63,224 nucleotides of DNA from an uncultured Pseudomonadales bacterium (GTDB lineage: Bacteria; Patescibacteriota; Microgenomatia; UBA1400; PJMF01): assembly GCA_964645645.1 (NCBI GenBank), contig CAZYBC010000006.1, positions 1 to 63,224 on the forward strand. The letters are read 5' to 3'. Numbering within the stretch: position 1 is the stretch's first letter; every line of letters starts with the position of its first letter. The notes under the pieces are model-generated. The model was not told where the DNA came from and did no database searches. It saw only the letters and a list, made by a program, of their open reading frames with translations. Below, piece by piece: positions 5,405-57,655 of this stretch. Both the position numbers and the translations under genes were made by a program.

Positions 5405-5446
5405 GCTATTATTTTAACAGTATAAACCTCATAACAAAGTACGAAT

Positions 5447-6287: not shown

Positions 6288-7937
<1,650 letters not shown>

Positions 7938-9523: not shown

Positions 9524-9620
9524 ATTTTTATTATTGCACAAATTTTTCTAAAAAATAGACTTATTAAAACTTCATTCGTGCTTATTATTTCCATTTCCAC
9601 CTCTGGTATAATACAGTGTG

Positions 9621-10790: not shown

Positions 10791-10791
10791 A

Positions 10792-34236: not shown

Positions 34237-37200
34237 TTAACGATAAAGACTTCTCATAGCAGCTATATAAGAATTTTCAGGATCAAACATTAAAGCAATT
34301 TGATAATATTCCTCTGCTTTATCAAAATTTTCTTCTTCTTGATGAGTACGACCCAGGTGGGTATAAAAAGCCGCTAAAAAACCATCTTCAGGTGTCATAA
34401 AATGAATATTTTGCCTCGCTTCTTGATAGCTTGGTTCTAAAAATCCTAAATGATCAGTTTCATTAACAAAATCTAAAGCTGTTTTAATTGATTCAATAGA
34501 ATATTTACTAAAAAAATCATTGTTGGGAACATTATCATTAGTAGCCTTAGTTAAACTATATCTATCTGCTGTTCTTGGATCGTAAACATTTATTTGATTT
34601 ATTGAAGCATCGTTATATAAAGCAGAAAGATGAAATCCTGACAAAGCAGTTCTTATCTGATTTCTATCTTTACCCAAATTATATAAAACTGAAATTGCAT
34701 AAGCTGTTTGAGCAATACAGTCATATTCATTACTCTCTGAAGGCTGTAAAAAAGAGTAATGAGGATGCTTAACATATGAATAATCACCTGAAGGAAATGT
34801 TAAAACATTTTGTCTTAATAATTGAAAAATTAAATCTTCTCTTTCTCTTTTAACTAATGGACTTTCATCTTTTTCTAAATCTTTTATTCTTTCTCTAGCT
34901 TGATTAATTTCTTCTACTCCACTAGGATTTAATCTTTGATAAGCAGTTTGTAAAGCATGATAAGTAACTAATCTCATTAATTCTTTTTCAGGATTTTCTG
35001 CCTCTATTGAAAAAATCTCTTCATTCCCAATTTTAGGCATTAATTCTGCTAAAATCTCTTTTGCTGGTTTTGATGAATCAAAATCTAAATCTTCCACTCC
35101 TAAAACATTAACTAATTCTGTTAGTTGTTCTGCAAAAGTTGGTTGAAATTGTTCTAAAACACCAGTTTCCTTATTTTCTTCTATTTTACTTTCCGTTTCA
35201 CTTCTTCTCTGCCAATCTTCTACACTGCCAATCGTAGAATAATTAAAGAAAACAAAACTATCGGCCTTAATCATACCTTCAATATCTGTTGGTTCCTGAG
35301 AGATTAAACCATCAAAGCCTAAATTTTTCATGAATTCAGCAAAATAAAAATTTTGTGATGAGCCTAATCCAACTTCCATATTATATTCAGGGATAAATCT
35401 GGTAGCTAAAACATAGTGAATTTGTCTATTCTCTTGATCTGGTTCTTTGGCAGCAATTGCTACTAAAAAATCGTAATATCTTTTCTCAAATTCAAACATC
35501 ATTTCTTCTATACCGTCTGGTTTAGAAATAGCCTCATATTGAGCTTTTTTCTGTGCAAACTTAGCTTGCATAAATTCTACCCAAGCTTTAAATAAAGGTT
35601 CTGGGAGAGACTGGCCATTACGTAAATCTAGCATTTTGGCTTGATAAGGCACTAAAGTGGTTAATACTCCAGTTTCTGTTTGAAGATTTTGTTTAGCTCG
35701 TAAATTAGCATATTCTTCTGCTAAAGCATGATTATCTGTAGTATAAAGTCCCGCTCCAATAGTATATGAACCATCTGGAGCATCTTCATCTGCAAAAAAA
35801 TCATAATTTTCATCTACTATTAATTTTTTACTAGCACCATGATAAAGCTTAAAAAGCTGATCTAAATTTTCAGCTGTAATTTGACTAGGATCAGTTTTAC
35901 CCAAAACGAGAGCTTCAATTTCTTGATCTCCAATTTTGATCTTAGTAGAACTAACTTCTTCTGTTATTGACGTTTCACCAGTTTCTTCCTCTTCTTCTGG
36001 CCTCACCAACCTGCTTACATCACCACTAATTCTTTTTACATATAGAGCAATTTCTTCTAATTGAATATTGATTCTTTCAAATACGCCGGCCAACCTGTTG
36101 GATGGTTTAACTTGCAAAGCTTCTAACTCAGCGGAAATGAGCTTGAGTTCATTTTTTAGAGTAGTTAAATCTGTAATAGCTTGGTTTTGAGCGGAATCTT
36201 GGGCAGCAGTAATTTGACTGATAGCTTGATCAATGGTTTGGAAGGCTTCAGCCATTTCAGCGATGGCTTGGGCTTTTTCAGCCTCGGTTTTTTTGAGCAT
36301 GGCATCGGCAGTTTCGGCTAAGGCGTCTAAAGTTTCTTGAGCAGGAGCGTTGTCAAAAGTATGATCATTAGCCATATTTTTAAGCACGGCAACTTGAGCT
36401 TGAGCAGTTTGGTTGAGAGCTTGCAAGTCGGCTTTATCGGCTTCAACAGAAATTGTATTTGCTAATGATTGAGCGATAAAAAAACTAGTAAATTCAGTAT
36501 TAAATTCACCAAAGGCTATTGGGCAGCTACTACAGCCTTTGGTGTTGTAGGAGCCGGTGCCGGAAAAATTTAAGGTTACATCTTCTAAACTTACTTTATT
36601 ACCATCAATTTTAATTTTAAAATATTGATTAATTATTTTAATTACATCACCATTCTTAATTTCTACACTACCATAAACTCTTTGACCACTTGGATTCTGG
36701 ACATTATAAAGAAAAGTACCATTGGTAGAAGTATCTACTAAAAACCATTGGCCCTGTGAATTATTAGAAATCTTAGCATGTCTACTAGAAACTCTTTCAT
36801 CATTAATCTGATAATTTCTTAGACCTCCATCTCCTCTACCAATAGTAATAGTTGTAGGAGTAAAGGTAGGCTGAGCTGCTTGCGCTTGAGGAGATTGAGC
36901 TGCAGATTGGCTGTAACCACTGGGCTGCTGGCTGGCTGGCTGTTCACCAGCATAAATAGTTTCTTTAACAATATCTCCTTTTCCACCATAATGCTCACCC
37001 ATACCTCGGTCAATGTTAATTACGCGGCCATCGTGATAAATAGGCTGACTCTTCCCTAATTTTTGATTATGACCATGATAAATTCTGTTTTGACCTTTAT
37101 TAGCAGCCGTAGCAAAAAGCTCTAAATATAAGTCTGTTGTTTCTGGATTATTCAAAAACTGGCTATCTTTCTTATCTAAAGTTAATATATCAAATAAACG

Positions 37201-40200: not shown

Positions 40201-43200
40201 GAGTCCCAACAATTGTTCACGAGCGGCCTGCGCTTCGTCTTTAACCTGGATTACTTCTTCCACTGGGGCATAACTGTCAGCAACAGCAGCTGTGGGTGGA
40301 TTAGGAGCAACTAAATCATTATCACGTTTAACAATTGCCTCAGTTAAATAATTTGCTTGTTTTAATAAAGCTGTCTTTTGGGTATCTAAATCTCTATATT
40401 TAGCTCTTAAAGCTTCAATCTGTTCTTTTTCTGCTTGGTGGGCTTGTTGGTAAGTAGTGGTAGCGTTAGCTAGGGCAGAATTTCTTTGTTCTAAGGTTTT
40501 AGAAAGAGTAGCTAAAACTTCTTGATTATCTTCTAGATAGGGTTCTATCTTAGGAATGAATTCATTATTAAGTGTATCAATCAACTCTGTTAAGGTCGCA
40601 GATTCATTTGTCCAATTATAGGCTTCAATCAACTCCAAAACTTTTTTATAAACATTATTTAGAGCTTCATTTTCCTCATTTTGACCAGCAATATAATTGA
40701 ATTCATTAAAAATAGTTGCTAAATCAGTTTCTAATATTGCAAGATGACTACCTATCTGTGATAAATCATTTTCTGCATCCCAATTAATATAACCAATTAA
40801 CTCTTTTAATTTTCCAGCTAAATTAGTGGCATTGTATCTAAAACTAGCTGAAATTTTTTGTTCATATAATTGTTTTTCAATGCTATTAAGCCCATCATTA
40901 TATGCTTTATATCGTGGATCATATTCTGCATTGATCTCTGCTATTTGTTGGTCTAATTCAGCTATTTGGGCTTTGACTTGCTCTAATTGTTCTTCTAAAG
41001 TCAATTCTGGAGAAGGTTCTTCTACTACTGGCTCAGTAAGAGCAGTTTCAGCTGCGACTTCTTCAGTTGACTCGGTTTTAAGCTTAGCTAATTGATCTGC
41101 CCAAGCTTTAAACATCTTGCCTAAGTGTTGTTGATTAGCAGTTTGAGCTTTAACAAAAGCTTGATATTGAGGCAATAAAGCTAAAACTGAATTAATTGGC
41201 CCACTACCGACTGGAATTGAGTTGTAAACACTTTTTAATACAGTATCTCTGGCAACAATTGCTTGTTTATCCGCCTGGGCAAGCTCTGCTTCCAAATATT
41301 CTCTGCCTTCAATTCTAGCCAAAGGATAATTGGCTTGTTCGGCAGTTAAGACAATCGGGTAGTTAGTTTGATCTGCAGTAATTGCTTCAGTGCCGGACTC
41401 AACCGCAACTGTTTCTGTTTCTTGATTTTCTACTTCAGAACCTTGTCCCTCCTTAGCTTTTACTGGATGAGTGGCAAAGTAAGCTGTTATGTTATATTGA
41501 TCAGCCAAATTAGCCAAAGTAGCACGGCGTGCTAACCAGGCTTGATACTGTTCAAAAAGATTTTGTACTGTATCTACTGAACCCATTAAAGGAATAGCTT
41601 GTCCAAATCTAATTGGGCCACGATCTTCTATCACTGCTGTTGTAGCAGCTGGCACTTCATTTTCAGTAAACGTACTAATAGTTTCAGCCATTCTAGCTAA
41701 AGGAGCTTCTTGATAGCGAACAATAGGATAGTTAGTTAAATCTGCTTCTAAAGCTGGTTTAGCTTGCAATGATTGCATTACTGGGGAATAAGCAAATGTT
41801 TCTAAAAATTGGTCAACTCTTTTTTGACCAGTAATTCTTGCCACGACTTGATCAACTGCGTCTACCAACCAATTAAACTCTACAGCTCGAGAATCGTACA
41901 AAACTGGCAAGTATTCTTTAACAACTTCAGTGTTGGTTAAATTTGGTAAAGCCGGAGTCTGATTAACGGTCCGAGTATCGCCTTGTTCTAATTCTTCAGT
42001 GCCAGCTAAATCAGAAACTACAGTGGTCGTAACTAAGACGGTAGAAGGTTGGTCATATACTGCCATTTGAGCTAAATATTCTTGTTGTTCTCTAGCTGCA
42101 GCTAATTCTTGAGCATAGCTTGGTAAAGAAGGATAACCACCATAAGGCACTAAAGGCGCAACAACTTCTTCATAAGGTAAGATAGGATAGTTTTCTTCAG
42201 TAGTAGTGGTAGTAACTTCTTCAGCTGGAGCTTCAGCTTCAACAGTTTGGGCTTCCTCAGTTGGAGTAGTTTCTTCTTGAGCAAACATCGGTTGTTCTGT
42301 TGTGGCTACAACTTCTTCTTGTGTAGTGCCGCCTGTACCGATTTGCTCCGCTTGAACGGAAACTTCTCCTGAAACTGGTTGTTCAACTTCTGGTTTAATT
42401 TGTTCAGTGACTGGCTCAATTTCTGCTGGCTGAACTTCTTGCACTGGCTGAACTTGTTCTATAGCTTTAGGAGCTTGGCTTTGTTGTTGTAAAGTTTGAT
42501 ATAAATCTAAGAATCCTCTAACCTTAGTGAAGATTTTTGTTGTATCAGTCAAAATTCCACCAATACCTGGAATAGAACTTGTTAAATCTGGAGTGGCAAT
42601 TTCTGATTCCACAATTTCTCTAACTGCAAAAACCCAATCTGTGGTTTGAATACCACTGATAAGATCTGTATCTTCTACACCGAGATAATCTTGTAGGTCA
42701 CTGACTAATAAATTATTTAAAGTGTTTTTTAATTGCAATACATCAGTTTCATTTAAATTTTCATCTTCTAAAGAATCAATTACAAGATTAATTTGTTTTT
42801 TCAGCTGAGGATCATCAACATAACTTTCTAAAGCAATTAATCTATCTAATAGTTCAGCAGCTAAATCATTTGGCGACAGCTCGTTTGATTTATTTATTAA
42901 GTCAACAATTTCCATTCTAAGATCATGTCTCATTAATCCGGCAAATAACTCACTAAAGCCGTCTTCTTTCATTAAGCTGTCTACATCAAATGTAAATAAA
43001 GCTCGTTCTGATTGCATAGTTAAACGATCTCTAAGTTGAGCTTTTTGATCGTCATTGGCAGAGCGATAATCCTTAATAATTCCACCTAAATTCTTGATTT
43101 GTTCACTGGTCATTCCCAGGTCTTCCATGGCTTTCTTGAAAGCCGCCACACTAAAATCTTCGCCAAATAAATCACTTAACAAAGCTTGGACTGATGACAC

Positions 43201-46200
43201 TCTCATATTTACTTTAGGAACAATTTTCCCTTGCTCATTAACCATAAAAGTAACTTCATCAAGCAAGCCAGTATAGGTTGGCAAAGTTAAATCAACAGTT
43301 ACTTCGTTAAATTGATTCTTTACTGCCTCAATATATTGATTTCTTCTATCAACTGCCAAATTTTCATCAGCCATTAATAAATCAATAATTTCTTGTTTTT
43401 TCTTTTCGACATAAGGCTTTAATTTGGCTTTAACCGCTGCATTAATTTGATCTTGTTTTTCTTCAGCTTCTAAACCTGCAAACTGTTGTTCATATTTTTC
43501 TATTAAAAGTTGCTTATAAAGTCTAATTCCGTTTAATTTTTCCAACACAGCTGGAATCTTGAAGGCTTCTGGAGCTTTAGTTTCTGCGGTAGTGCCTAAA
43601 GCATCTACAATTGCTAAAACGTGGTGAACCATTTCTGGATGTACGCCATCACTTTCTACTCTAAAATCTGCATCATAGTTAGGATAACTATGCAATAAAA
43701 TTGCTTCATAAACAGCCTCAAAACTAGCCTTGCCGAGATGTCGTTCAAAATATGATTGATTAGCTTTTATAAAAGCGGCTGAAAAAATAGGGTGATCTTT
43801 TGAAGCTTCAAAGCTAGCTTGAGCCTGAGCAACTCCAGTTGTATAACCCATATCATGAAGTAAAGTTGCTACAACAAAGGCTAATCTATCTTTTGCTGTT
43901 ACGACTAAACCAGCTTGCTCTAACTTACTTACTGATTCTAATAAAGCTAAACCTTTATTTAAGTTACCCCTTACAATGTGGTTATTACCATGATCACTGC
44001 CGGAAAAAACCTGTTTATCTCTTAAAATTTGATAACTTAATAACCTAGCCATATCTCTAGCGAATTCAACGCCAGCAATTCTTGAATTTTCCCCATTAGC
44101 TAAGACATAATCGGCTAAAACCTCGTTAGCGGCTAACATCACATCACTAATTTCAGCTTCTGTTAACTTTGCTTTTTGTTCACCACCTTGGTAATTTCTG
44201 AGCTCAGCTTCAATGTCAGCTACTGTTGTAACTGTTAGATTTTCTTTAATGCCAAAGAAATAATTTACTTCATCCATCATTACGGCTGGTTTAACAACTC
44301 CATTGTCAACTAATCTAGTATAGGCTGCACCTAAGTCACCTTTACCGTCTACCAAATCTCTTAAGGCAGCTTTTTTACCAGCAAAAGTATTCCATCCTAA
44401 CACTGACTTAATAGTATTAATTAGTCCTTTACCTTTTGCTAAATTAAGTGTTTGAGCATATTCGGTCTTACCCTGTTGTCTTAGCTTAGCTAATTCTTCA
44501 TCGCTAGAACCATGAGCTAAAGTTACTGGAGACTCGGTTTTTACGACTTCTTCTTGAGTAGTACCACCTGTATCAGGTTGTTCTGCTTGAGCAGGAGCTT
44601 CAGTTTTTACTCCTAAAAAGTTAAGTAAAACCTCAATAGCTTGCTCATGAGTGTAAATTTCTTTATTTTCAAAAACTTGGGTGTATAAATTAGCAATCTG
44701 CTCGTTACTTAAGGCTCTTACGTTAGCAGAATATTGGCCTAAACCACGATCGGCTAAGTATTTAGTTAAAGCCGTTGTTTTTTGTTCTGTAGTTCGTTCC
44801 TTAATTTCAATAACAGGGAATTCAACACCTCCAAAAATTACAGTTTCAGCCGGCTTAACTTCTTCTTGAGTAGCACCACCAGTGCCAGGTTGTTCAACTT
44901 CTGGCTGGGCTTGCTCTGGGGTAGTGGTTTTTTGCCCAAAGCCTAAATCTTTTGCAATGCCACCAAACCAATTCCCAACTTTATAAATAAAACTGTTTTG
45001 AATATTAGTTTCAGCTTTAGCTGCAGCTTGTGGTTGAACTGGTTGAGCTTGCTGACCTGGCTGTACTGGTGTAGCTGGCTGTGATTCGCTCTTCTTAAAT
45101 AGACTGATCAAACCAGTACTTAAAACCTTTTGCACAGCTGGAGCATTAACCAAACCACCAGACCACCATTGAGTTAGATTAGTAGCAGAACCAATTAAAC
45201 CAGTGGCCCACCATCCACTTAATCTTTCTCCTAAAGTGGGTTTTGTCGTGGAGGCTTTTTGTTCTGTAGTTTGGGCAACTTTTTCCGTTTCAGTTTTTGG
45301 AGTGACTGGTTGAGTTGGTTTGTTTAAATAAGTGGCAATAAAAGCTGGCTTAATTACGGTTGGCCAAGTGGTATCTAAAAAGGCTGCTAAACCATTGGCC
45401 ATTGTTCTAGGAATAAATAAAGCAGTATTTACTAAACCGCCCTTGGGCAAATTACTCTGACGAGTAGAAAAATTATCCGCAACCGCAGTAATAATTCTTC
45501 TGGTACCGGCTAGGAGGGTGGGCTGCATAGATGGAGCTACTACTCCAGTAGCAACAGTCCTTCCAGCGTTATTTCCAGCTGCAACCTTAGCGACATCATC
45601 AGTCTTTTTAACTGTAGCATTATGCTGTAGTAAATATTCTGATAAATCACCACTATTGACTACTGCTTCTTTACTAATTGGGGCATTTTGATCAGCGTAA
45701 GCTAATCTATTAGCATCAACTTCAACATTACTTCTCATTCTAGCGAAAGCTTGAGGATTATTTGTTTCAATGTATTTTAAGATACTTTGATTAGCTGAAT
45801 CACTAAAAAGATCTTGCCATTTAGATTGAGCACTAGCTAATTTAGCTTGTCTAGCCACTAAAGTATCTTGAGATCCACCAACTAAATCAACATTTCTACG
45901 AGATTCATTGCTAGACATTTCTAGTAATTTTGCAGAAGCCCAACTAGCAATTTTAGCATCAGCTGACATTGATAATTCTGCTAAAACTCTTGTACTAGCA
46001 CTCTCGATACCATTATCTAATCCTTGAGTTGTCTTTAGTTGTTCTACTCTTAATTGAGCTTCATTAATACTTTGTCTAAATTCTTGAAAATCAAACTCAT
46101 TAGCACTCGCTAATCTAGTAGTAGCATCAACGTTAAGATCTAAATTAGATCTAGTTGAATCCAAAATAATAGCATATTGTTCAGCCACGGCTGTACCACG

Positions 46201-49200
46201 ATCAAGTCTAGCACCTGCCTGAGCAACTAAACCTTCTGGAGAATTTTTACTAACCAAAGTAACACCAGGCACATTACCTTCAGTTCTGATACTATCTCCT
46301 GTAGCCCCACCTCGACCAATGACAATGGTCATGTTTGCTGGATTATCCTGATAAAGTTTTTGAACTCCTTTAGCATCTAAATTATCATTTAATATTCTTC
46401 TGCTAATTGTTTCATTACCAGCTGAATCAACAGTTCTAACAAAGGCTACTTCTACATAGTGATCACCTCCTTGTTGAACAAAATATCGTTGTCTGTCTGA
46501 AAAATCACGACCCTGAGCATCAGCTTGAGCTATCCGCATAGTATCACCAACATCATCAGAACCAATAACATACTTCACGCTATCATTAGAAGCCAAACCA
46601 TTACTTTGAGCTAATTTTCCTGATCTAATTAAATCAACAATTAATTGAGTACTATCTTCCAAACCAGAAGCCATATAAGAACGATCTTTATTAATTCTAG
46701 CTCCGATATCAGTGTCGGCAGTGTTGACAATCTTTTCAACAGCTTCTGTATCTCTATAAGTATCAAATCCTAAAGTTGTCTCTACCACACCACGACCATC
46801 GGCAAAGGCACCTGTGACAGCGCCTACTGAAGAATTATTTAAATCAGCTAAATAATCAGCAAAAGTAGAGCGATAAGCGGTTTCTGGAGAAGAAGTTAAA
46901 CCATCAAAATTAACTTTAGAAGCCGCATTATTAACTCCAGGATTAGCTTGAGCATAAGCTTTGGCTCCAATAAATTCCATTGCTGCTTGTAAGCTAGCCG
47001 TATAACTTTGGCCTTCATTTTTAACACCTCCAGAGGCTGGGATCGTTACTGGATCTTTAGTTCTATTATTGGCATTATTAGCTTGTAATTGAGAATCAAC
47101 ATCTCTAAAGTAATCAACACCAAATTTCATCTTCAAACCTTGAGCAAAACTGTTAATTTGGTCAATTTGATCTAAAACCTGATTAGCTTGAGCACTTGAA
47201 TCTTTAAAGCCAGCTGCTTCTAAACGACTAGTTAAAGCGTTAGTATTACTAGATAGAATTTCTAACTCTTGAGCATTGCTCCTTACGTAATCAACTAAAT
47301 CACTAATTTCAGTCTCACTCATCCCTTTAAAAGCTGAACTTTCTCCATTTTTAACTTTAAGTTGAGTAAAAATTTTATCTAAAGTATCATCGGTAAAACG
47401 AGCTACTTCAGCACCATCTGCTTCTCTAACAGTTAAAACTCCTGCATGATCTCCAGATCCCCAACGATTAATTAAGCCTGTATCAAGAATAGATTCACCA
47501 ACTAAATTAGCAGCGTCTTTTTGATTTTGAGCAATTGGTTTACTGCTTTCACCAGTAGGATTAATTGCTTGCCTAGAAGGATCCATATTTATCTGAAGTT
47601 CATCTACATAAACGCCAACATTAGAACTTAAATTTTTATATAAACTAACCGCCACATCTCTCGTTGAGCCTAAACTATAATTATGAGCAGTATTTCTTAA
47701 AAATTGAATTTGATCTGGATTACTAACTAAATAGTCAGCCGCAAGCACTTCTGCTTGATAAGCTTTATCCTGTAAAAATTTATTTTGATCAAATTCTACA
47801 ACTTTAGTTCCTTCTGGACTCATGGCTCGTAATTGATTAGCTATATCAGCTTCACCACCTGCTTTAGCAATATAAATTCCTTTATCTCTGCCATAAACTG
47901 TTTTTTGAATTTCTAAAACTAAACCACCAACAAAACTTTTTCCTCCGGCAGTAGTTAACTCTACAGCTACTTTAGGAGAACTTAAAATTTGAGCTAATGT
48001 GGATAATTGATTAGATCTTGTATTGAAGAAAGCAATCCCTTCAGATTGGCCAGCTCTTAATTCTGCTGATCTAATAATATTCTCTATTTGTAAATTCTTC
48101 TGAGGATCACTACTAACTTGAGGGATATCCAATTCACGAGTCTGCAACAGCTGATCAATATCAGAAATTACTCTTAAGGCTTCAACTGAAGTTTGATCTA
48201 AACTAGCAAATTTTTGTTGCAAATCAGCTACTGTATCTAATAAAGTGGCTTGTTTAAGTTTTCTTAAAGCTTGGTTGAGTTGTTGTTCTACTGCTAGAGT
48301 GCGTTGCCCTCCATTTTGACTAATTAAATCAGCTTCTATTTTTGTTAAATCTACTTCTGAGGCTGATTTTTTACCCAATTCTGTAGCTACTTGATTTCTT
48401 AATTGTTCAGCTTGGTTCTTAGTACTTTGAGCAGTGGTTTCAGGACGGATTGTAGTCAAACCAGCTAATACAGGTTTACTAAGATTATCATCTTGATTTA
48501 AAGATGCCGCTTTAGCTTTAACTGAATCTAAATTTTGTTGTAACTGAAGTTTTTGTTGTTCTAAATTTGCTCTTTGGTTAATTAAACTTTGATTATCTGG
48601 ATTAATGTTTAGTTTACTGTCTAATGCTCTAATTGCATTATCAAAACTATTAATTTTTTCAGTTAATTTTCTGACATCTCCTTCTGTTTGAGCAATTTCT
48701 TGAATACTTTGTTTAGCTTGATTAAATCCTGCTTGCAATTCTTGAGCAACTTCTGCTTGTGTTTTAATTGGTTGTTCTTGTGGCTGAGCTGTTTTTTGCG
48801 CTTCTTCCACCTTGGCAGTCTCTGTTTTTACCTCTTGGGTACTAACGGTTTGTCCGCCCCTGCCAAACCAACCGCCAACTGTTTCTTGGATTCGTTGGAA
48901 AATTCCGGGCTGAGCGGCAGGTTTAGTGGTTTCTACTTGAGCTACTTGTTCTGTTTCAGTTTTAACTGTTTCTGGTTGAGCGGCACCTTCAGCAGTTTTG
49001 GCTGTTTCGGGCTTAATGCCTTCTGCTTGAGCTTTAGCGACAGCTGCTTCAATAGCTTGCTTTTGTTGTTCAAATTCTTGATTAACTTTAGCTAATTCAG
49101 CATCGGCCTGAGCTAATTGAGCTTCCAGTTCTCCACGTTGAGTTTTAATCTGTTCTGCCTGAGTTACATCACCAATTTGTTCGGCAATTTTCACTGATTC

Positions 49201-52200
49201 TTCAACCTTGGCAATCTTACTTTCTAATTCTATTTTCTGTTGTTCAATAATTTGTTTTTGAGTTTGAGCTGCTTCCAATTTTATTTGAGCATCAGCAATC
49301 ACTGTTTCTGGCAGAATTGCTTTAGCGAGTCTTATGTCTTGTTCTTGTTGTCTGGTTTCGTAGATTTTATAAGCATTATCTTTTTGAACAGTAAGATCGG
49401 TATTTTGCTTAATTAGATTATCTCTCACTGTAGCTAAAGCTAATTTTTCTGATTCTGGTAAATTAGGTTCTTTGCTTAACTTGCCCACAATGGCTTCAAT
49501 ATCGGTTTGGTTAGCTTTAACTAAATCTTCATAATATTTAGCCTTGGCATAATAGGGGTCAGATAAAGTCGTATCTAACTTAACGGCATTATCAAGTTTA
49601 GCCACATCCAAAAGAGTTTGCTGAGTTTTAACAAGTGGATCAAGTTTAGGCACATCCGCGCCACCTAAACTGCGGACTGGCTGGCTGTTTCTAAAATTAC
49701 TAACATCAGACTGCACTTCAAAACCAGCTTGGCCTAGACCAACAGCTAAGCCCAGGAAGGCTCTAGTCTGAGCAAATTGATCATTAGGATTAAGATTAGC
49801 GGTATTTTGTAGAGCGTAATAATCAAGCATTGAGCCAGATACATCAGCTAAAAGATCAGTGCCTAAATTAAGGGCTGCATTATTAGGATTAAATAAACCA
49901 GCTGTACCAGCCACAGTGTTTAACACTGAGCCGCCAACACTGGCCCAATCAGTTAATTGTTGACTTTGAGCAGCATTAACCGTTGCTAAAGTTGTATTAG
50001 CCAGGCCTAAGCCATAACCTAGTTGTTGAGCATTAGAAGCAACTAAGCTAGTCGCAGTTTGGGCAGTCCCAATAATGCCTTGGGCGCCACTGCCCATTAA
50101 GCCAGTTAATTGCACGCCTTGTTTGGCCGCTGTTAAACTGCCAGTAACCGGAGCTAAAACAAAGTTGGCTCCAGCTAAAGCGAAGTTAGCACCCTGTTGT
50201 AAACAGGCTGGATCATTTAAAGCATCTTCAGAAGTACGACAAACTGCGGCGGTCTGAGAGCCAGCGCCAAAAAAGTTTGAGCTAGCTAAAGAAACTTGAG
50301 TTGTACCTAGTAAAGTAGCTCCCACTCCTAAAGCACTCGCTCCACCAGCAGCAGCAGTGATTCCTAAAGCGGGAACAGCTACTACTGCACTCGCTATCGC
50401 TACCTTTTCCATCACCGCACCACTTAATTCCAAAGTGGCTAAAAACTTATCTCCACCAGTATATTGATTAGCAAAATCAGTCTGAACATTAACATAATTT
50501 TCAACGCTATTGCCAAACCAATTGCTAGAAGCCATGGTGGTCATTAAGTTATAGGAAAATTTATCTACACCTTGCAAATCCTTAGTGGCTATTAAAGCTT
50601 CGCTTGCCCATTCTGAATCTCGATTTAAAATTCTACTGGTAATATTTTCTTTACGTAAAGCTAACTGAGCATCATCCAAGCCAAACACTACCTTACCAGC
50701 ACTGTCACCTTGGCAATCCGCAATTTGACCGTTAGTTTTAGTTACTAACTGACATTTTTGTTCTACTAAATCCTGAACATTGCGACCACCCAAATAGTCT
50801 TGATAAAGTTGTTCTAAATTGCGATTTTCTTGTTCAACTAAGCGTTTTTGATTAGCCACTTGAGCAATAGCTGGTTTTTCTAAACTAGGTGCTAAATACG
50901 CCAAAATTCCTTCTTGAGTACTACATTTTTGATAATCATTTGGATTGTCCGCTCGACATTGGTTGTACAAAACCTGCATATCTGTACTTAAATAAGTGTT
51001 GATGGTTTCTGTTTGAGCTTCTTCAACTTTAGCGGCAATCTGACGATATTTTTTAGTTTCTTCTTGTTTATAAGTAATAATATTTTTAACTTGATCTTCA
51101 CTGACCCCAGGGACTACGATCTGTAAAACCTGTTGTTCATTGCTACATAATTCTGGTTTACCAGTTAAACTGACACATTCAACCTGTAAATCGGTATAAC
51201 CACCAGCTAAATAAATACCAAATTTTTGATTTAAATTTTGAGTAAAAGCCTTATCCTCTTCAACCTGATCAAAAATATAAGCAGTTTCAATCTTTGGATA
51301 CAAAGCTTTTAGAATTTTTTCACTAGATAAAGTACAAGCAGTGTTGCTATCACCTAATTCAGCTTTACACTGATTTCTTAAATAGTCGAGATCATTATCA
51401 ACCAAAGCCTGATAAGAACGAGAAAATTTAGCGTTCATTAAATTAGTCACTTCTTCTTGGCTTAAATTAGTTTTTTGCTCTAACTGACTTAAGGTTAATT
51501 CTTTGTTATCAGTTAAATCTTGAATAGCTTGATTACTTGAAGGCTTGATTATTGGTTGAGATGGAGCTGGAGTTTTTTCAGCTAACAAATCTGCCAAACT
51601 AGAAGCTGTAGGAATCGGAGTAGGTGGAACTTTAGTAGGTGTGGCAGTTGGATAAGCCGGAGTACGATTTTCTTGCACAATTGAACCAGTGGGTGAGCAA
51701 ACATTTTCACAAACTTGATTCTGTGTACATTGGCCATTTTTATCTAATTGGGAATACCAACAGAACTGCTCACCAACTTCTACCGTACCTTGGCTAGTTG
51801 GATAAGTACAAGGCATGATGAAAGCAGGCCCCTTACAAGCATTACCCACCGCTCCTTCTGGGATACATTGACCTTTGGCACATTTAAAGTTTTCTTTACA
51901 AGGATTAAATAACCCACATTTCTCTTTTTCCTGACAAATCCCAGCCTCACAACCACCTTCGCAGTTATATTCTAAATAACCAATTTGAGTTTGTTTACAA
52001 ATTAAAAGCTTAGTGCCGTCAGCAGAACATTGACTAGAAGGATAAGTACAAACATTGGCCGCACATTGACTGCCACTACAACCGCCATCACATTTACTAC
52101 TTCTAACAAAAGTTCCTTGCTGACAGTTATATTGCCAGTAAGAGCTGTTCCACCATTCACATTTAGTTTCTCCACTGGAACATTCTTTTTTAATTTCTCC

Positions 52201-54093
52201 AGGTTCTTGACAAGTTTTATGGCCTTGAACATCAGGAATACATTGATTAGACTGACATTCATAATTAGCATTGCAAACTACTCCATTAGCTTTATCACGA
52301 TAGTTAGCTACTTTACCAGTCTGACAAGGACCACAATCTTTAACATTTAAATTACATAAGCCAGTCTTGGTATCTTGCTTGGTAAAATAACAAATTTTCT
52401 CAGCTATAACGTTACCATTATTGTCAAAATTACAAGCCTGAACAAAAGCCTCTCTACAACTGACATCTTTAATAGGTTCACAACGAAAAAGAAAATTAGA
52501 AAGTCTCCCTTCAAGGCCAGGACAGCAAGAAGAACCGGCCAATATACCAATCTGTTCACCTTGACCTTTACAAACTGTTTCACCAATCTGATAAGGAGGG
52601 ATAGGAGTAGGTGTGGGTAATAAACAAGCTTGATTGCCACAACCATAGGCACAATTACTAGGATTACCCCAAGTTTGATTATTACTACAAGTATATTCAA
52701 CACCATTCTGACATTTGTGTTCACCTAAGTTACATTCAATTCCACCAGTTTTTTCACCACCTTGATGAGTATCATCAACCTTTGGCTCTTGGCAGGTTCT
52801 TGGTAAACCTTTACATTCCAATCCTGGTAAACACTTTTTATTGGCAAAAATACCACAATACTCACCTTGCTTTAAGGAAACTTCCACTACTTTAGCAGGA
52901 ATAGGGGTAGCAGTAGGTGCAAGCTTTTCTTCTGTTTTACTTTTGGTCTTAGGTTGATCAGTTTTTTCTTCAGTAGTAGTGCTGGTTGCATCAATTGGTG
53001 TAAACGACACGCATTTTTTACTACCAGTACAAGCAGAAGCCTCACCAGTACCGACACAAGTACTGTAATAACATTTAGCTTTACCTAAGGTTAAACCAGC
53101 CCGAGTGGTTTCTTCAAAGTATTCAGATTTACAAGCTTGACCATTAAAACGACAGCTATCACTTCCTGTTCCAATTCCGATAGTACTCTTATCAGTACAC
53201 TGATTGTTGTAACATTGATAACCAGTAGGACATTTTTGTTCGGTCCAAGTTTTACAATCACTCTTACAAGTCTTGAGAGTATCATAATTACATTGCACTT
53301 CACCTGGGTTACAGTTACACTGTTCAGTTTTCACACAACAAACCTGCATCGTATCACAACCACCACACTGACTACTTTGAGCAGCTTCTAAGCCCGCAGG
53401 ACAGCCACCAGTATAGGCACTATAACAACCAGCTTTACTAGTTGTACCACCTGACCCAGGTTTAATAGTCACTTTAGGGGTAGGAATAGGCGTACTAGCT
53501 GGTACTTTAGTTGGTCTAGGAGTTACTCCCACATTACCACAAGGAGCTGGACAATTACTTCCAGACTGATTTCTTTGAGTTTCCCCATCCCAACACCTGA
53601 CACATTCAGACATAGATAAGCATGCATATTCACCATGCTTAGCATAACTACAATTAATATTCGGCCCACAATAAGGATCACCAGAACATTTGCTTCTATC
53701 TACCTCTAACCACTGCCCACCTTGGCACTCTACACATTGTTTAGTCCCACCACAGGCTGTAGTCCCAGGATCAACATAAGCATTAGTACTAGACAAAAAA
53801 CATTTTTTTACACCTGGTGTGGGAGTGAGTGTTGGTTTAGCACTTGGCTGGGCACTTGGAGAAGGTGTGGTATACAAATCTGTACTAGCTTGTTGACGAA
53901 TATCTTGATTAACCTTAACCAAATAAAAAGCCGCTGCCCCGCCTACCAATAACAAAATTAAAGGTAACAATAAAATAAATTTAGTTCTAAATCTTACTAA
54001 AGGTCTTAAAGTAGAGGATTGGCGATGTGGAGTAAAAAACTTACTAAGTTTAAAAAGTAAATTTTTTTCACCCTCTTTCCTTGTTTGTAACAT
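34237..54093 (-). CDS. Giant (6,618 aa) membrane-anchored multidomain protein: Cys-rich region, SecA-like ATPase, HD, J-domain, PPP phosphatase, FHA, ART-like, transglutaminase-like, TPR
   Basis: Single uninterrupted 19,857-nt frame; motifs detailed in the findings. Confidence 0.95.
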   Translation of the reverse strand: MLQTRKEGEKNLLFKLSKFFTPHRQSSTLRPLVRFRTKFILLLPLILLLVGGAAAFYLVKVNQDIRQQASTDLYTTPSPSAQPSAKPTLTPTPGVKKCFLSSTNAYVDPGTTACGGTKQCVECQGGQWLEVDRSKCSGDPYCGPNINCSYAKHGEYACLSMSECVRCWDGETQRNQSGSNCPAPCGNVGVTPRPTKVPASTPIPTPKVTIKPGSGGTTSKAGCYSAYTGGCPAGLEAAQSSQCGGCDTMQVCCVKTEQCNCNPGEVQCNYDTLKTCKSDCKTWTEQKCPTGYQCYNNQCTDKSTIGIGTGSDSCRFNGQACKSEYFEETTRAGLTLGKAKCYYSTCVGTGEASACTGSKKCVSFTPIDATSTTTEEKTDQPKTKSKTEEKLAPTATPIPAKVVEVSLKQGEYCGIFANKKCLPGLECKGLPRTCQEPKVDDTHQGGEKTGGIECNLGEHKCQNGVEYTCSNNQTWGNPSNCAYGCGNQACLLPTPTPIPPYQIGETVCKGQGEQIGILAGSSCCPGLEGRLSNFLFRCEPIKDVSCREAFVQACNFDNNGNVIAEKICYFTKQDTKTGLCNLNVKDCGPCQTGKVANYRDKANGVVCNANYECQSNQCIPDVQGHKTCQEPGEIKKECSSGETKCEWWNSSYWQYNCQQGTFVRSSKCDGGCSGSQCAANVCTYPSSQCSADGTKLLICKQTQIGYLEYNCEGGCEAGICQEKEKCGLFNPCKENFKCAKGQCIPEGAVGNACKGPAFIMPCTYPTSQGTVEVGEQFCWYSQLDKNGQCTQNQVCENVCSPTGSIVQENRTPAYPTATPTKVPPTPIPTASSLADLLAEKTPAPSQPIIKPSSNQAIQDLTDNKELTLSQLEQKTNLSQEEVTNLMNAKFSRSYQALVDNDLDYLRNQCKAELGDSNTACTLSSEKILKALYPKIETAYIFDQVEEDKAFTQNLNQKFGIYLAGGYTDLQVECVSLTGKPELCSNEQQVLQIVVPGVSEDQVKNIITYKQEETKKYRQIAAKVEEAQTETINTYLSTDMQVLYNQCRADNPNDYQKCSTQEGILAYLAPSLEKPAIAQVANQKRLVEQENRNLEQLYQDYLGGRNVQDLVEQKCQLVTKTNGQIADCQGDSAGKVVFGLDDAQLALRKENITSRILNRDSEWASEALIATKDLQGVDKFSYNLMTTMASSNWFGNSVENYVNVQTDFANQYTGGDKFLATLELSGAVMEKVAIASAVVAVPALGITAAAGGASALGVGATLLGTTQVSLASSNFFGAGSQTAAVCRTSEDALNDPACLQQGANFALAGANFVLAPVTGSLTAAKQGVQLTGLMGSGAQGIIGTAQTATSLVASNAQQLGYGLGLANTTLATVNAAQSQQLTDWASVGGSVLNTVAGTAGLFNPNNAALNLGTDLLADVSGSMLDYYALQNTANLNPNDQFAQTRAFLGLAVGLGQAGFEVQSDVSNFRNSQPVRSLGGADVPKLDPLVKTQQTLLDVAKLDNAVKLDTTLSDPYYAKAKYYEDLVKANQTDIEAIVGKLSKEPNLPESEKLALATVRDNLIKQNTDLTVQKDNAYKIYETRQQEQDIRLAKAILPETVIADAQIKLEAAQTQKQIIEQQKIELESKIAKVEESVKIAEQIGDVTQAEQIKTQRGELEAQLAQADAELAKVNQEFEQQKQAIEAAVAKAQAEGIKPETAKTAEGAAQPETVKTETEQVAQVETTKPAAQPGIFQRIQETVGGWFGRGGQTVSTQEVKTETAKVEEAQKTAQPQEQPIKTQAEVAQELQAGFNQAKQSIQEIAQTEGDVRKLTEKINSFDNAIRALDSKLNINPDNQSLINQRANLEQQKLQLQQNLDSVKAKAASLNQDDNLSKPVLAGLTTIRPETTAQSTKNQAEQLRNQVATELGKKSASEVDLTKIEADLISQNGGQRTLAVEQQLNQALRKLKQATLLDTVADLQQKFASLDQTSVEALRVISDIDQLLQTRELDIPQVSSDPQKNLQIENIIRSAELRAGQSEGIAFFNTRSNQLSTLAQILSSPKVAVELTTAGGKSFVGGLVLEIQKTVYGRDKGIYIAKAGGEADIANQLRAMSPEGTKVVEFDQNKFLQDKAYQAEVLAADYLVSNPDQIQFLRNTAHNYSLGSTRDVAVSLYKNLSSNVGVYVDELQINMDPSRQAINPTGESSKPIAQNQKDAANLVGESILDTGLINRWGSGDHAGVLTVREADGAEVARFTDDTLDKIFTQLKVKNGESSAFKGMSETEISDLVDYVRSNAQELEILSSNTNALTSRLEAAGFKDSSAQANQVLDQIDQINSFAQGLKMKFGVDYFRDVDSQLQANNANNRTKDPVTIPASGGVKNEGQSYTASLQAAMEFIGAKAYAQANPGVNNAASKVNFDGLTSSPETAYRSTFADYLADLNNSSVGAVTGAFADGRGVVETTLGFDTYRDTEAVEKIVNTADTDIGARINKDRSYMASGLEDSTQLIVDLIRSGKLAQSNGLASNDSVKYVIGSDDVGDTMRIAQADAQGRDFSDRQRYFVQQGGDHYVEVAFVRTVDSAGNETISRRILNDNLDAKGVQKLYQDNPANMTIVIGRGGATGDSIRTEGNVPGVTLVSKNSPEGLVAQAGARLDRGTAVAEQYAIILDSTRSNLDLNVDATTRLASANEFDFQEFRQSINEAQLRVEQLKTTQGLDNGIESASTRVLAELSMSADAKIASWASAKLLEMSSNESRRNVDLVGGSQDTLVARQAKLASAQSKWQDLFSDSANQSILKYIETNNPQAFARMRSNVEVDANRLAYADQNAPISKEAVVNSGDLSEYLLQHNATVKKTDDVAKVAAGNNAGRTVATGVVAPSMQPTLLAGTRRIITAVADNFSTRQSNLPKGGLVNTALFIPRTMANGLAAFLDTTWPTVIKPAFIATYLNKPTQPVTPKTETEKVAQTTEQKASTTKPTLGERLSGWWATGLIGSATNLTQWWSGGLVNAPAVQKVLSTGLISLFKKSESQPATPVQPGQQAQPVQPQAAAKAETNIQNSFIYKVGNWFGGIAKDLGFGQKTTTPEQAQPEVEQPGTGGATQEEVKPAETVIFGGVEFPVIEIKERTTEQKTTALTKYLADRGLGQYSANVRALSNEQIANLYTQVFENKEIYTHEQAIEVLLNFLGVKTEAPAQAEQPDTGGTTQEEVVKTESPVTLAHGSSDEELAKLRQQGKTEYAQTLNLAKGKGLINTIKSVLGWNTFAGKKAALRDLVDGKGDLGAAYTRLVDNGVVKPAVMMDEVNYFFGIKENLTVTTVADIEAELRNYQGGEQKAKLTEAEISDVMLAANEVLADYVLANGENSRIAGVEFARDMARLLSYQILRDKQVFSGSDHGNNHIVRGNLNKGLALLESVSKLEQAGLVVTAKDRLAFVVATLLHDMGYTTGVAQAQASFEASKDHPIFSAAFIKANQSYFERHLGKASFEAVYEAILLHSYPNYDADFRVESDGVHPEMVHHVLAIVDALGTTAETKAPEAFKIPAVLEKLNGIRLYKQLLIEKYEQQFAGLEAEEKQDQINAAVKAKLKPYVEKKKQEIIDLLMADENLAVDRRNQYIEAVKNQFNEVTVDLTLPTYTGLLDEVTFMVNEQGKIVPKVNMRVSSVQALLSDLFGEDFSVAAFKKAMEDLGMTSEQIKNLGGIIKDYRSANDDQKAQLRDRLTMQSERALFTFDVDSLMKEDGFSELFAGLMRHDLRMEIVDLINKSNELSPNDLAAELLDRLIALESYVDDPQLKKQINLVIDSLEDENLNETDVLQLKNTLNNLLVSDLQDYLGVEDTDLISGIQTTDWVFAVREIVESEIATPDLTSSIPGIGGILTDTTKIFTKVRGFLDLYQTLQQQSQAPKAIEQVQPVQEVQPAEIEPVTEQIKPEVEQPVSGEVSVQAEQIGTGGTTQEEVVATTEQPMFAQEETTPTEEAQTVEAEAPAEEVTTTTTEENYPILPYEEVVAPLVPYGGYPSLPSYAQELAAAREQQEYLAQMAVYDQPSTVLVTTTVVSDLAGTEELEQGDTRTVNQTPALPNLTNTEVVKEYLPVLYDSRAVEFNWLVDAVDQVVARITGQKRVDQFLETFAYSPVMQSLQAKPALEADLTNYPIVRYQEAPLARMAETISTFTENEVPAATTAVIEDRGPIRFGQAIPLMGSVDTVQNLFEQYQAWLARRATLANLADQYNITAYFATHPVKAKEGQGSEVENQETETVAVESGTEAITADQTNYPIVLTAEQANYPLARIEGREYLEAELAQADKQAIVARDTVLKSVYNSIPVGSGPINSVLALLPQYQAFVKAQTANQQHLGKMFKAWADQLAKLKTESTEEVAAETALTEPVVEEPSPELTLEEQLEQVKAQIAELDQQIAEINAEYDPRYKAYNDGLNSIEKQLYEQKISASFRYNATNLAGKLKELIGYINWDAENDLSQIGSHLAILETDLATIFNEFNYIAGQNEENEALNNVYKKVLELIEAYNWTNESATLTELIDTLNNEFIPKIEPYLEDNQEVLATLSKTLEQRNSALANATTTYQQAHQAEKEQIEALRAKYRDLDTQKTALLKQANYLTEAIVKRDNDLVAPNPPTAAVADSYAPVEEVIQVKDEAQAAREQLLGLLKVIPGLNAIEQFVANIDQVNFLTGLVNVWTASELSLSQKVTETFKVLPESVTPGIANQRFTEILTQAESLEDLHTRLEKNFSYGNNYWMLVNPATNQIEFVNLFKFIDNVDDTLSSLNNKEFDEDVSATLADWPNYAPIRAAGQQLVAIALAQRKQANATKAEAFYADYRQQQEQLINRLEIKPETKVAELKTLAQNPPNQKSWLTDNNQIVGADTVVSWLDRIDFENVNQVIPADKIPLSALREKVQALLDLRKSEQARKAAEKYQQAQTAYSKFLLRLNLSSETTAAQLEVLASNQDLTIDDYLKMFGLTRDSEQTDFTAAKRALLNPVHPDNYEMLGTAYLFDKKTNLEMQALLANLAAATKLLNRALIDLEEYFKNPEAYLRKHNSTASSQPSTDFYTQIKKAEDAIKSTLYKARNLDELIELMSKYEETRDMVDDVREFVEGKIKADRLLESYGIRDLAKKLLAEEAEERASYIDKLNKLPIFANLMPLISHSSTTLDQLREIWNTINGFRFGNFDAQTLEGTDVRFNFSLLMTQIERILNLSGSLYRRPINEINNAQNVQGLLDFLTRYENEDIFLDDETFYTSEELKAEKQSLIDLRAAWNTDDYNQVDVILNNLRIAAIKNKVLSIIRDRYQRNINDLYLKAVNAKTLAELRNIFNQSPILYYPSDALTPRATILTSSYLVSSLDNGLVQNLPTELQNIVNKLLTQAKVQQAAQQVAPSSGQSVSNQTRTVNSVMVGDVHSNKNRLVKLLQESGWIEFIGQTEKPGFFARIFNFFIKLFTGKDPAKSSLNFEDEWQLNVLGNANSISFTGDYFDRNRNDREKTPGIDIIKLLWKLKQQASKMVGVEFNMLGGNHEVEFLLAMLLDENEDFRLLQALAHNGVDMDEVVEAKKDPQVWEILQNLDWMALRVDGSVMQHSDVFSYADFIYPDLISGIGWEKLADVEETKQHLDMILQRVQNDQLTPQQVVERINSNMKNYVQTAVRNNDLNSIFRLFDILTLDKKDSQFLNNPETTDLYLELFATAANKGQNRIYHGHNQKLGKSQPIYHDGRVINIDRGMGEHYGGKGDIVKETIYAGEQPASQQPSGYSQSAAQSPQAQAAQPTFTPTTITIGRGDGGLRNYQINDERVSSRHAKISNNSQGQWFLVDTSTNGTFLYNVQNPSGQRVYGSVEIKNGDVIKIINQYFKIKIDGNKVSLEDVTLNFSGTGSYNTKGCSSCPIAFGEFNTEFTSFFIAQSLANTISVEADKADLQALNQTAQAQVAVLKNMANDHTFDNAPAQETLDALAETADAMLKKTEAEKAQAIAEMAEAFQTIDQAISQITAAQDSAQNQAITDLTTLKNELKLISAELEALQVKPSNRLAGVFERINIQLEEIALYVKRISGDVSRLVRPEEEEETGETSITEEVSSTKIKIGDQEIEALVLGKTDPSQITAENLDQLFKLYHGASKKLIVDENYDFFADEDAPDGSYTIGAGLYTTDNHALAEEYANLRAKQNLQTETGVLTTLVPYQAKMLDLRNGQSLPEPLFKAWVEFMQAKFAQKKAQYEAISKPDGIEEMMFEFEKRYYDFLVAIAAKEPDQENRQIHYVLATRFIPEYNMEVGLGSSQNFYFAEFMKNLGFDGLISQEPTDIEGMIKADSFVFFNYSTIGSVEDWQRRSETESKIEENKETGVLEQFQPTFAEQLTELVNVLGVEDLDFDSSKPAKEILAELMPKIGNEEIFSIEAENPEKELMRLVTYHALQTAYQRLNPSGVEEINQARERIKDLEKDESPLVKREREDLIFQLLRQNVLTFPSGDYSYVKHPHYSFLQPSESNEYDCIAQTAYAISVLYNLGKDRNQIRTALSGFHLSALYNDASINQINVYDPRTADRYSLTKATNDNVPNNDFFSKYSIESIKTALDFVNETDHLGFLEPSYQEARQNIHFMTPEDGFLAAFYTHLGRTHQEEENFDKAEEYYQIALMFDPENSYIAAMRSLYR

Positions 54094-55734: not shown

Positions 55735-55867
55735 ATAAAATCTAGAAGTAAAGAACTTCCTGTTATCATTAAAGACAAAAATTGAACTTAATTCAAGGCG
55801 AAACAAAACCGAAATTTACTCAAGCAAAAATAATTGACTGAGTTAGCACTAGTTAATACAACTAACC

Positions 55868-56290: not shown

Positions 56291-56293
56291 AGG

Positions 56294-56971: not shown

Positions 56972-56976
56972 ATTTT

Positions 56977-57600: not shown

Positions 57601-57655
57601 TGCTTTTATTGTAACAAGTTTATAAAGAAAACACCATTAACTTAAACCACTCAAA

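Follow-up and report, generated by a model that had tools for sequence, protein, structure and literature searches.

The closest described counterparts of the protein considered here are the giant proteins of the Omnitrophota ('Archaeovorin', 'Dockerin-type'), which combine transmembrane (TM) regions with a divergent SecA_DEAD domain and for which self-export has been proposed (West-Roberts et al., bioRxiv 10.1101/2023.11.21.568195). Their P-loop domain comes without the helical scaffold and wing of SecA, their genes have type II secretion/type IV pilus-like genes close by, and the paper describing them mentions neither a cysteine partition nor a CSxC module, the word 'cysteine' occurring 0 times in it (bioRxiv 10.1101/2023.11.21.568195). 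In the Candidate Phyla Radiation (CPR), large Cys-rich extracellular proteins are known from Peribacteria (PMC4736985) and giant membrane proteins from Vampirococcus (PMC8080830). Patescibacteria make up a large share of bacterial diversity, and little is known about how they hold on to their hosts and draw resources from them. Here we describe a giant open reading frame (ORF) of 6,618 amino acids (aa) (34237..54093, stop included; 19.9 kb) in contig CAZYBC010000006.1 of assembly GCA_964645645.1, the whole analysed stretch of which, 63,224 nt, we call the window; the giant gene, its parts and its upstream neighbours are given in window coordinates and lie on the minus strand. Its product is a member of a rare, Patescibacteria-restricted family of putative giant envelope proteins in which two opposite cysteine rules, applied in one chain, appear to divide the protein into parts of different fate.

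The likeness to the Omnitrophota giants lies in ultrasmall, host-dependent bacteria that carry giant ORFs, in the order of a putative extracellular part, a TM region and a divergent P-loop domain, in variable enzyme domains that include cell-wall-degrading ones, and in neighbour genes resembling those of type II secretion systems and type IV pili. In contrast, the present family belongs to Patescibacteria, its members have 4-8k aa where the Omnitrophota giants have 30-85k aa, Pfam sees no SecA_DEAD domain in it, and one marginal hydrophobic module stands in place of many TMs. Like the proteins of Peribacteria and Vampirococcus, it would count among the surface giants of CPR bacteria to which a role in host attachment is ascribed, some of them very Cys-rich, but those are adhesin-type proteins of 1.4-4.2k aa for which no NTPase-bearing, Cys-free tail has been described. 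The family is best described as set apart by its phylum, its pilN-pilO linkage, its Ala/Gly-rich module, its CSxC module and its two-rule Cys partition.

The first fifth of the giant protein holds 88 Cys, 78 of them within aa 98-799 and the other 10 in five short-loop pairs (909/920, 973/983, 1046/1057, 1114/1127 and 1285/1297). A run of 4,556 aa that is entirely free of Cys follows (aa 1298-5853; 36535..50202), and behind it come C5854 and C5857, which form a CSSC motif, and C6459. An earlier note on this DNA, concerned with the region that translates to aa 1218-5853, had put 78 Cys in aa 98-799 and about 10 more up to aa 1297, then none for some 4,550 residues until C5854; exact residue counts agree with it, for the N-terminal figures to the residue. 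We judged the depletion both at the protein level, against the other ORFs of the window, and at the DNA level, by TGY codons per frame. The background of 0.69% Cys in 32 other window ORFs leads one to expect 31 in the gap (P(0) = 2.4e-14), and the in-frame TGY codons there number 0 against an expectation of ~54 from position-specific base composition, while the remaining frames have 57 and 255. Because His, Trp, Met and Phe are lowered just ~2-fold in the tail, the depletion is specific to Cys and no by-product of composition. Apart from a linker repeat described below, internal repetition is almost lacking across the 6,618 aa.

This partition is a real, conserved trait of the family. An exhaustive HMMER search of 1.84 billion representative proteins with aa 1991-2900, the most globular-looking part, found 22 relatives at 28-48% identity, mostly giants of 3,000-7,800 aa, which is a measure of how rare the family is. 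Conserved-motif scans with a family alignment (A3) picked up 14 loci in GTDB genomes and another 5 in metagenomes, and the family now stands at about 30 relatives, all from Patescibacteria metagenome-assembled genomes or metagenomes. Homologues with Cys scattered through the region, which by the earlier note would have told against its idea, did not appear among these relatives: in every member paired Cys extend up to the module described below, the next 1,600-5,500 aa are free of Cys, and the boundary always falls at that same homologous module. With the tail taken as everything from the last N-terminal Cys to the protein end, the tails of 25 distinct members contain 74 Cys in 91,577 residues (0.081% vs the 0.69% background), 50 of them ≤30 aa from another Cys; three further metagenome members behave in the same way, and the partition holds in genomes of 34-51% GC. 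Exported bacterial proteins follow two documented strategies, having Cys in even or paired numbers or excluding Cys (Daniels et al. 2010, PMC2823432), and the prevalence of tight pairs among the residual tail Cys is what is seen in chains that face an oxidising exterior (PMC2823432). Both strategies are found here within one polypeptide, with a sharp boundary between them.

Several other searches for relatives returned little. A word-indexed homologue search with aa 1-5000 returned the query alone, one with the module alignment (A1) returned nothing, its candidates swamped by low-complexity words, and one with a further alignment (A2) returned only a 578-aa fragment; first-pass single-protein scans of genome and metagenome contigs found no relatives. 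The informative titles among the genome records are Woesebacteria, Gottesmanbacteria, Pacebacteria, Paceibacterota and Parcubacteria. Nine GTDB records that carry this CPR-type family (L002, L003, L005, L006, L009-L012 and L014) are titled 'uncultured Pseudomonadales' or 'Gammaproteobacteria', labels that are implausible and look wrong; L002 also has a CPR-type pilO-p568 neighbourhood, as found together with pilN in L007 and L008. Two loci of Woesebacteria type, L001 (488-20560) and L018 (254-20518), have much larger ectodomains with 120 and 83 Cys and the same Cys-free tail, and the ectodomain Cys pairs of L001 recur with a regular ~48-aa periodicity. The giant gene of L012 appears split into a 106-Cys ORF and a 2-Cys ORF, but the break is a 100-N scaffold gap (7243-7342) with duplicated flanks; being a scaffold artefact, it provides no evidence for a cytoplasmic tail made without a signal.

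The N-terminal part opens with a predicted signal anchor at aa 39-59 (53917..53979; Kyte-Doolittle (KD) 2.5, free energy (dG) -1.5), whose flanks carry 4 vs 2 K+R; the basic N-flank predicts an N-in orientation. Four Cys-rich modules separated by Pro/Thr linkers follow (51697..53802), at aa 98-185, 223-361, 413-490 and 508-799, with 12, 20, 10 and 36 Cys, each an even number, and the N-terminal Cys counts of most full-length relatives are even too. After these come helical repeats (50704..51456; helices from a low-confidence AlphaFold2 (AF2) model), each with one short-loop pair, from 909/920 to 1114/1127. Read directly, aa ~60-1297 would be an exported, disulfide-bonded ectodomain behind an N-in signal anchor; it is from the sequence that we infer both the disulfides and the topology. 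Directly after the anchor stands the motif NQDIRQQAS (aa 62-70; 53884-53910), which may be a processing or sorting signal. It is kept family-wide as N-Q-D-x-R-Q-Q-A-S (for example SQDNRQQAS or NQDLRQQAD), and no other ORF of the window carries it.

The switch from one Cys rule to the other coincides with a conserved Ala/Gly-rich hydrophobic module of about six predicted helices, H1-H6 (aa 1218-1460; 49714..50442), because it contains the last N-terminal Cys pair, C1285-x11-C1297, which sits in the loop between H1 and H2 (50203..50241). The earlier note had likewise placed the switch at a ~240-aa Gly/Ala-rich hydrophobic stretch, and the peptide it quoted from there, aa 1231-1263, falls within H1. 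Ala makes up 19% of the module, Gly 13% and Leu 14%, against D+E of just 4.5% and K+R of 1.6%. H1 itself is a 35-aa uncharged segment, VAIASAVVAVPALGITAAAGGASALGVGATLLGTT (aa 1231-1265; 50299..50403; KD 2.13), and the sole TM-like helix of the module, which outside H1 is rich in small residues and in Asn/Gln/Thr; by KD, only H1 and the N-terminal anchor are TM-like in the whole giant protein. Homology of the module extends throughout the family (alignment A1). The H1 consensus reads EKVVAPxAAxVxLPxAxASGAGxGxxAGxxSSAFSLYQGAG, followed by LNKQGNMMLASSAVAALTSGAGIINGF, GRxGGIGLSxxNAxNSG, MSGLSTFVAASGVIGN, a loop that carries a Cys pair and then AWIGLALSLTQD. The pair 1285/1297 aligns with the first module pair of the distant members P0010 and P0011, and these two and P0016 have short-loop Cys pairs in every second module loop, so that the 'helix, C-loop-C, helix' pattern of the ectodomain is carried on into the module.

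Whether this module is simply a membrane boundary can be judged from H1. By a simple sum on the Hessa biological scale (approximate values, no position/length terms), its approximate dG is +2.2 kcal/mol vs -1.5 for the N-terminal anchor, which would make it a marginal stop-transfer signal. Among the 20 members scored, the H1 equivalent has a dG of +0.5 to +3.7 in 14 and of +4.8 to +7.7 in 6, with the extremes in P0010 (+0.5) and L001 (+7.7); that of L018, at +5.3, is also not of TM grade. L001, P0011, P0016/L013, L014 and L018 have a module without any TM-grade segment and keep the Cys partition intact. A plain identification of H1 with the TM boundary is thus insufficient, and a single TM dividing an oxidising outside from a reducing inside is not enough to explain the family. 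The TM prediction upholds a TM-like H1 by KD and leaves it marginal by dG, below TM grade in several relatives.

Behind the module, an A/E/Q/K/L-rich linker, presumably alpha-helical by its composition (aa ~1480-2000; 48094..49656), carries the amphipathic motif PGIFQRIQETVGGWFGRGG (aa 1729-1747; 48853-48909), conserved in relatives as PS[FL]WQR[LF]. It leads to the domain that defines the family, a predicted P-loop NTPase recognised by its motifs and in the 22 relatives (aa ~2030-2760; 45814..48006). Walker A is LTTAGGKS (aa 2046-2054; 47932-47958) and Walker B YVDELQI (aa 2162-2168; 47590-47610), and the motifs AVTG (46810-46833), GRGGATGD (46294-46329) and QAGARLDRG (46195-46221) are conserved in the family. 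GxxGK[ST] and DExx stand ~100-120 aa apart, the spacing looked for in a P-loop NTPase of superfamily 2 (SF2) type. ELTT[ASN]GGK[ST] occurs in 25/25 members and DE[LA] in 23/25; GRGGATGD plus QAGAR[IL]DR, assigned by pattern only to the motif V/VI arginine finger of a second RecA-like domain, were found by regular expression in 17/25. The domain sits at a constant 480-880 aa behind the last Cys pair. Our conclusion from these motifs is that aa ~2030-2760 form a putative SF2-type P-loop NTPase, of a possibly SecA-like subtype; the family NTPase profile found nothing in Pfam or among PDB sequences.

In hhalign comparisons with single E. coli sequences, the family NTPase scored 35.8 with RecQ (P=0.0015, probability 17%), 25.6 with SecA (P=0.046), 24.4 with UvrB, 23.6 with DinG, 20.4 with RhlE and 17.6 with RapA, shuffled SecA as a control giving 16.6 +/- 2.1. 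The greedy alignment to SecA, weak in score, pairs AVELTTAGGKS with AEMRTGEGKT, VDELQ with IDEAR, AVTGA with GMTGTA, DTEAVE with DTEAFE and AQAGARLDR with NQLRGRSGR. It is co-linear over motifs I, II, III and VI, with a II-III spacing of 260 aa vs 184 aa in SecA, and on this low-scoring alignment the long II-III insertion falls where SecA has its preprotein-binding domain (PPXD).

We tentatively favour a reading in which the tail is free of thiols for unfolded membrane crossing and/or for an oxidising exterior, and in which the module is a membrane-interacting element at the switch. Part 1 (aa ~60-1297) would be exported behind the N-in signal anchor and stabilised or locked outside by disulfides. 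Part 2 (aa 1298-6618), acidic and purged of Cys, would consist of the helical linker, the SF2-type NTPase and lineage-variable enzyme or regulatory domains. We propose that the chain is held at the module, the site where it would meet or cross the membrane, that the NTPase and tail start in the cytoplasm of the producer, and that the tail is later moved out unfolded. Part 2 would then be export- or threading-competent cargo for host contact and the adjacent NTPase a candidate motor. In this form the model fits both the export-type and the cytoplasm-type evidence. Export through the producer's own membrane could be arrested and later resumed, as in CdiA; or else the chain might leave the cell entire, with the module serving as a latent translocator in the membrane of the host. 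Threading of the tail seems reasonable to us, and export of part 2, the motor function and delivery to a host are likewise steps that we infer.

Several observations favour this reading. An exported tail is suggested by the conserved purge and the tight pairing of the few tail Cys, by the presence of both Cys strategies of exported proteins in one chain and by the low Cys content of other putative exported proteins of the window (p568 0/568, GH18 0/413, PilN 0/207). Export is also suggested by the marginal H1, which is not of TM grade in several members and so leaves the boundary unexplained by an ordinary TM anchor, and by lineage-variable domains of effector type (Fic, cell-wall hydrolases, ADP-ribosyltransferase (ART)-like). 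The invariant Walker A/B motifs, constant position and SecA-co-linear motif order of the NTPase would suit a candidate motor, and the pilN/pilO operon together with the Omnitrophota precedent is consistent with the reading as a whole.

Other results weigh against it. NTPase, FHA, phosphatase and HD domains work in the cytoplasm, which we regard as an argument that the tail belongs there. A strong internal TM of P0009 (dG -1.6), basic on its upstream side (5 K+R), stands ahead of the SLT domain, and another strong one (dG 0.5) lies close to the C-terminus of P0008; in P0009, and less clearly in P0008, this suggests that the C-terminus of the core is cytoplasmic when made. Taken together, the cytoplasm-needing domains and these signal-anchor-like TMs speak for a tail that is in the cytoplasm at least when it is made. 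Pfam SecA_DEAD and SecA_PP_bind had no match on the giant protein (E≤0.1) or on 10 family members (E≤1), and the likeness to SecA is not significant, RecQ outscoring it through motifs I and II only; the identification with SecA, at first read from the motifs, was downgraded on the strength of these controlled hhalign comparisons. As for the module, the A1 members gave chance-level matches only in Pfam and the A1 profile nothing below E=1 among PDB sequences, and AF2 returned an all-helical chain whose fold was not predicted from the single sequence of aa 851-1500 (predicted local distance difference test (pLDDT) 38.8) and was unusable as a fold from a 9-sequence alignment of the module (pLDDT 37.2). 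Glycine-zipper motifs are not enriched over composition (7 observed vs 5.6 +/- 2.2), a dG scan of the window protein found no further TM after H1, and the dG values are simple sums of the kind described. The suggestion of the earlier note that the stretch resembles pore or translocator helices thus comes down to a resemblance, shared by no Pfam or PDB match and with a single marginal helix. Its step from Cys avoidance to threading fares better in part: the partition is conserved, scattered Cys were not found and the tail Cys stand in tight pairs, whereas the cytoplasm-type domains of the tail pull the other way and leave threading a possibility.

The cytoplasm-type evidence could also mean that nothing moves. 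The module would then anchor the chain in the membrane by an odd number of spans, with part 1 always outside as an ectodomain and part 2 always in the cytoplasm as a scaffold or hub at the type IV pilus base or host-contact site, similar to FimV/HubP and with its own NTPase and phospho-signalling domains, and Cys would be lacking from another cause, for example because the chain is long-lived, largely non-globular and acidic. FimV/HubP proteins have a periplasmic LysM domain, a single TM, an acidic cytoplasmic region and a C-terminal TPR-like domain. Only an acidic tail and a sub-threshold TPR motif are in common here, the Pfam search giving no FimV, HubP or LysM match. Such a static topology would suit the FHA domain above cut-off, the metallophosphatase motifs and the Walker A/B NTPase, the internal signal-anchor-like TMs of P0008 and, before its SLT domain, of P0009, the aromatic/basic amphipathic motifs that could tether the chain to the inner leaflet, and the acidic tail with its C-terminal TPR motif and pilN/pilO neighbours. 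In the Omnitrophota giants, too, the SecA-like domain comes after the TM anchor (bioRxiv 10.1101/2023.11.21.568195). We regard it as less likely, though a serious rival. Nothing in it accounts for a Cys content of 0.08% over some 30 diverged members, a globular NTPase of ~850 aa included, when other cytoplasmic proteins of the genome hold 0.7-1.3% Cys, and it leaves the tight pairing of the residual tail Cys unexplained. Moreover, the several members whose module has no TM-grade segment could not cross back by ordinary insertion. Were the tail a static cytoplasmic scaffold, a conserved purge of Cys over about 5,000 cytoplasmic residues would itself be unexplained.

A purge that protects chemistry is a distinctly less probable cause. 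Stray thiols would, on this account, disturb the CS[SDN]C (...H...) centre or the oxidative folding of the 88 N-terminal Cys; in most members a conserved CSxC, at times accompanied by another Cys and a His, does close the run, and N-terminal Cys are even in the four modules and in most full-length relatives. The longest purges, however, of 4,620 and 5,497 aa, belong to P0006 and P0011, which have no CSxC, and mis-pairing with ectodomain Cys needs a shared oxidising compartment, which again implies export. To our knowledge, a 5-kb-scale purge around one redox site is without precedent. That a coiled-coil or low-complexity chain simply has no Cys, by chance or composition, can in practice be dismissed, although large parts of the tail are A/E/Q/L-rich and low (~2-fold) in His, Trp, Met and Phe. 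The gap probability in the window protein alone (P = 2e-14), the TGY counts of 0 in frame vs 57 and 255 off frame and the tail counts of 25 members led us to reject it; the globular NTPase, phosphatase and FHA domains are Cys-free as well, and about 30 members, whose genomes have 34-51% GC, keep the pattern.

Returning to the thiol-free, export-competent tail, other single-chain delivery systems provide partial parallels. The N-terminal half of CdiA is reportedly displayed while the C-terminal half is held until receptor contact and then threaded into the target. The present protein is similarly one long chain with polymorphic C-terminal cargo, but its N-terminus bears a TM anchor, an NTPase is part of the chain, and the cell it belongs to is a presumably monoderm CPR cell; a TPS domain, FHA-peptide (filamentous-haemagglutinin) repeats and a CdiB partner found no match in Pfam/NCBIfam. 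In MARTX and the large clostridial toxins, a Gly-rich or hydrophobic region of ~170-250 aa is thought to form the translocation pore, and the effectors unfold. The giant single chain with an exchangeable domain array is common to both, whereas here the cargo lies on the C-terminal side of the hydrophobic region and an N-terminal membrane anchor is added; the giant protein has 0 GG.G.D matches for RTX repeats and no Pfam match to a cysteine protease domain or CROP-type repeats. Colicins, Bcl-2 proteins and the diphtheria-toxin T-domain are pore-forming helical bundles. H1, an uncharged segment of hairpin length (~35 aa) amid less hydrophobic helices, is reminiscent of them and would permit a switch from soluble to membrane form, but sequence similarity is absent (Pfam, PDB) and the hydrophobicity of H1 is not kept in all members. 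Autotransporter passengers are Cys-poor with closely spaced pairs only, and tight pairs are tolerated through narrow pores.

A more far-reaching version, which we consider unlikely, is that an episymbiotic CPR bacterium has in this single chain an entire device for contact-dependent injection. A disulfide-locked adhesin or stopper outside would be joined to a switchable Ala/Gly-rich translocon module and an in-chain SecA-like motor, and a thiol-free effector string would be passed, unfolded, across the envelope and into the host once the pilus has made contact. If the tail is indeed threaded cargo, the family would represent a new self-contained design for protein delivery and a testable model for the larger Omnitrophota giants. 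The Cys map also offers a cheap route to functional boundaries in other giant proteins.

The Cys-free run of the window protein ends at the CSSC motif (aa 5854-5857; 36523..36534), part of a conserved module in which CS[SDNV]C is followed 45-90 aa later by H-x-[MF]-x-N (aa 5911-5915 in the window) and with which the run usually ends across the family. This module could be a metal or redox site. The element 'NP..xG' precedes CS[SDNV]C, a third Cys is added in some members (HGMQNxC), and there are two copies each in P0008 and L001; CS[SDNV]C is recorded for P0002-P0009 (P0006 being elsewhere given as without CSxC), P0016, L001, L004, L009, L011 and L013. Just before it lies an FHA domain (aa 5749-5820; 36634..36849; PF00498 E=1.5e-12, 48.2 bits vs a cut-off of 20.7; FhaB-like by NCBIfam), the sole Pfam match above cut-off on the giant protein. 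A predicted calcineurin-like metallophosphoesterase precedes this (aa ~5376-5700; 36994..37968), scoring 15.2 bits with PF00149 against a cut-off of 21.5 and bearing all four motifs, GDVH, GDYFDR, GNHE and GH, in order. Weaker segments resemble HD (aa 3401-3472; 43678..43893; Pfam E=0.011, below cut-off), ART of DUF3990-like type (aa 6082-6190; 35524..35850; Pfam E=0.05; a similar block in P0011) and, C-terminally, TPR (aa 6574-6607; 34273..34374; TPR_1 E=5.5e-4, below cut-off, and designed TPRs in PDB). Beyond FHA and the weak HD, Metallophos, TPR and DUF3990 matches, nothing on the protein was found in Pfam, NCBIfam, PHROGs or PDB sequences, and profiles A1 and A2 matched no known family in the database searches. 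The tail is acidic. Relatives carry other tail domains: two FHA and a Fic in P0005, Amidase_2, VanY and a C39-like domain in P0006, and SLT in P0009.

Aromatic/basic amphipathic motifs (GGWFG, GWWATGL, GNWFGG and FFARIFNFFIKLF) recur along the Cys-free chain, at aa 1729-1747, 2958-2985, 3037-3053 and 5405-5421, and could serve for docking or as tethers in the plane of the membrane. Three copies of a linker repeat, Q-P-x-TGG(A/T)TQEEV, stand between domains (aa 3052-3084, 3160-3188 and 3897-3931).

Upstream of the giant gene lies p568 (54100..55806), whose stop is 6 nt from the giant ATG. This operon partner combines a Pur_ac_phosph_N/FN3-like segment with Big_13 and an N-terminal TM, and has 0 Cys. 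Further upstream are two type IV pilus alignment-complex genes, pilO (56294-56971) and pilN (56977-57600), each recognised by its Pfam family. The gene order murJ-pilN-pilO-p568-giant (window 54100-59347) also occurs in L002, L007 and L008, and p568 and the giant gene hold the place that pilP and pilQ have in the pil operons of diderms. At ~34% GC and with penicillin-binding proteins, MurJ, GroEL, NrdR and DUF5667, the window resembles a CPR chromosome. An origin as a mobile element or polyvalent protein was rejected: tblastn of the NTPase domain found no match in 50,697 phage and 72,556 plasmid records, the giant protein had no match in PHROGs, and the chromosomal context consists of housekeeping genes. 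Elsewhere in the window, a Sua5/YrdC-TsaE fusion ORF (9618-10790) overlaps a TsaD ORF (10738-11934) in a compact t6A synthesis cluster (9618-11934), and an AbiEii-type toxin ORF adjoins two divergent tRNA-Met (CAT) genes (302-931 and 1212-1598).

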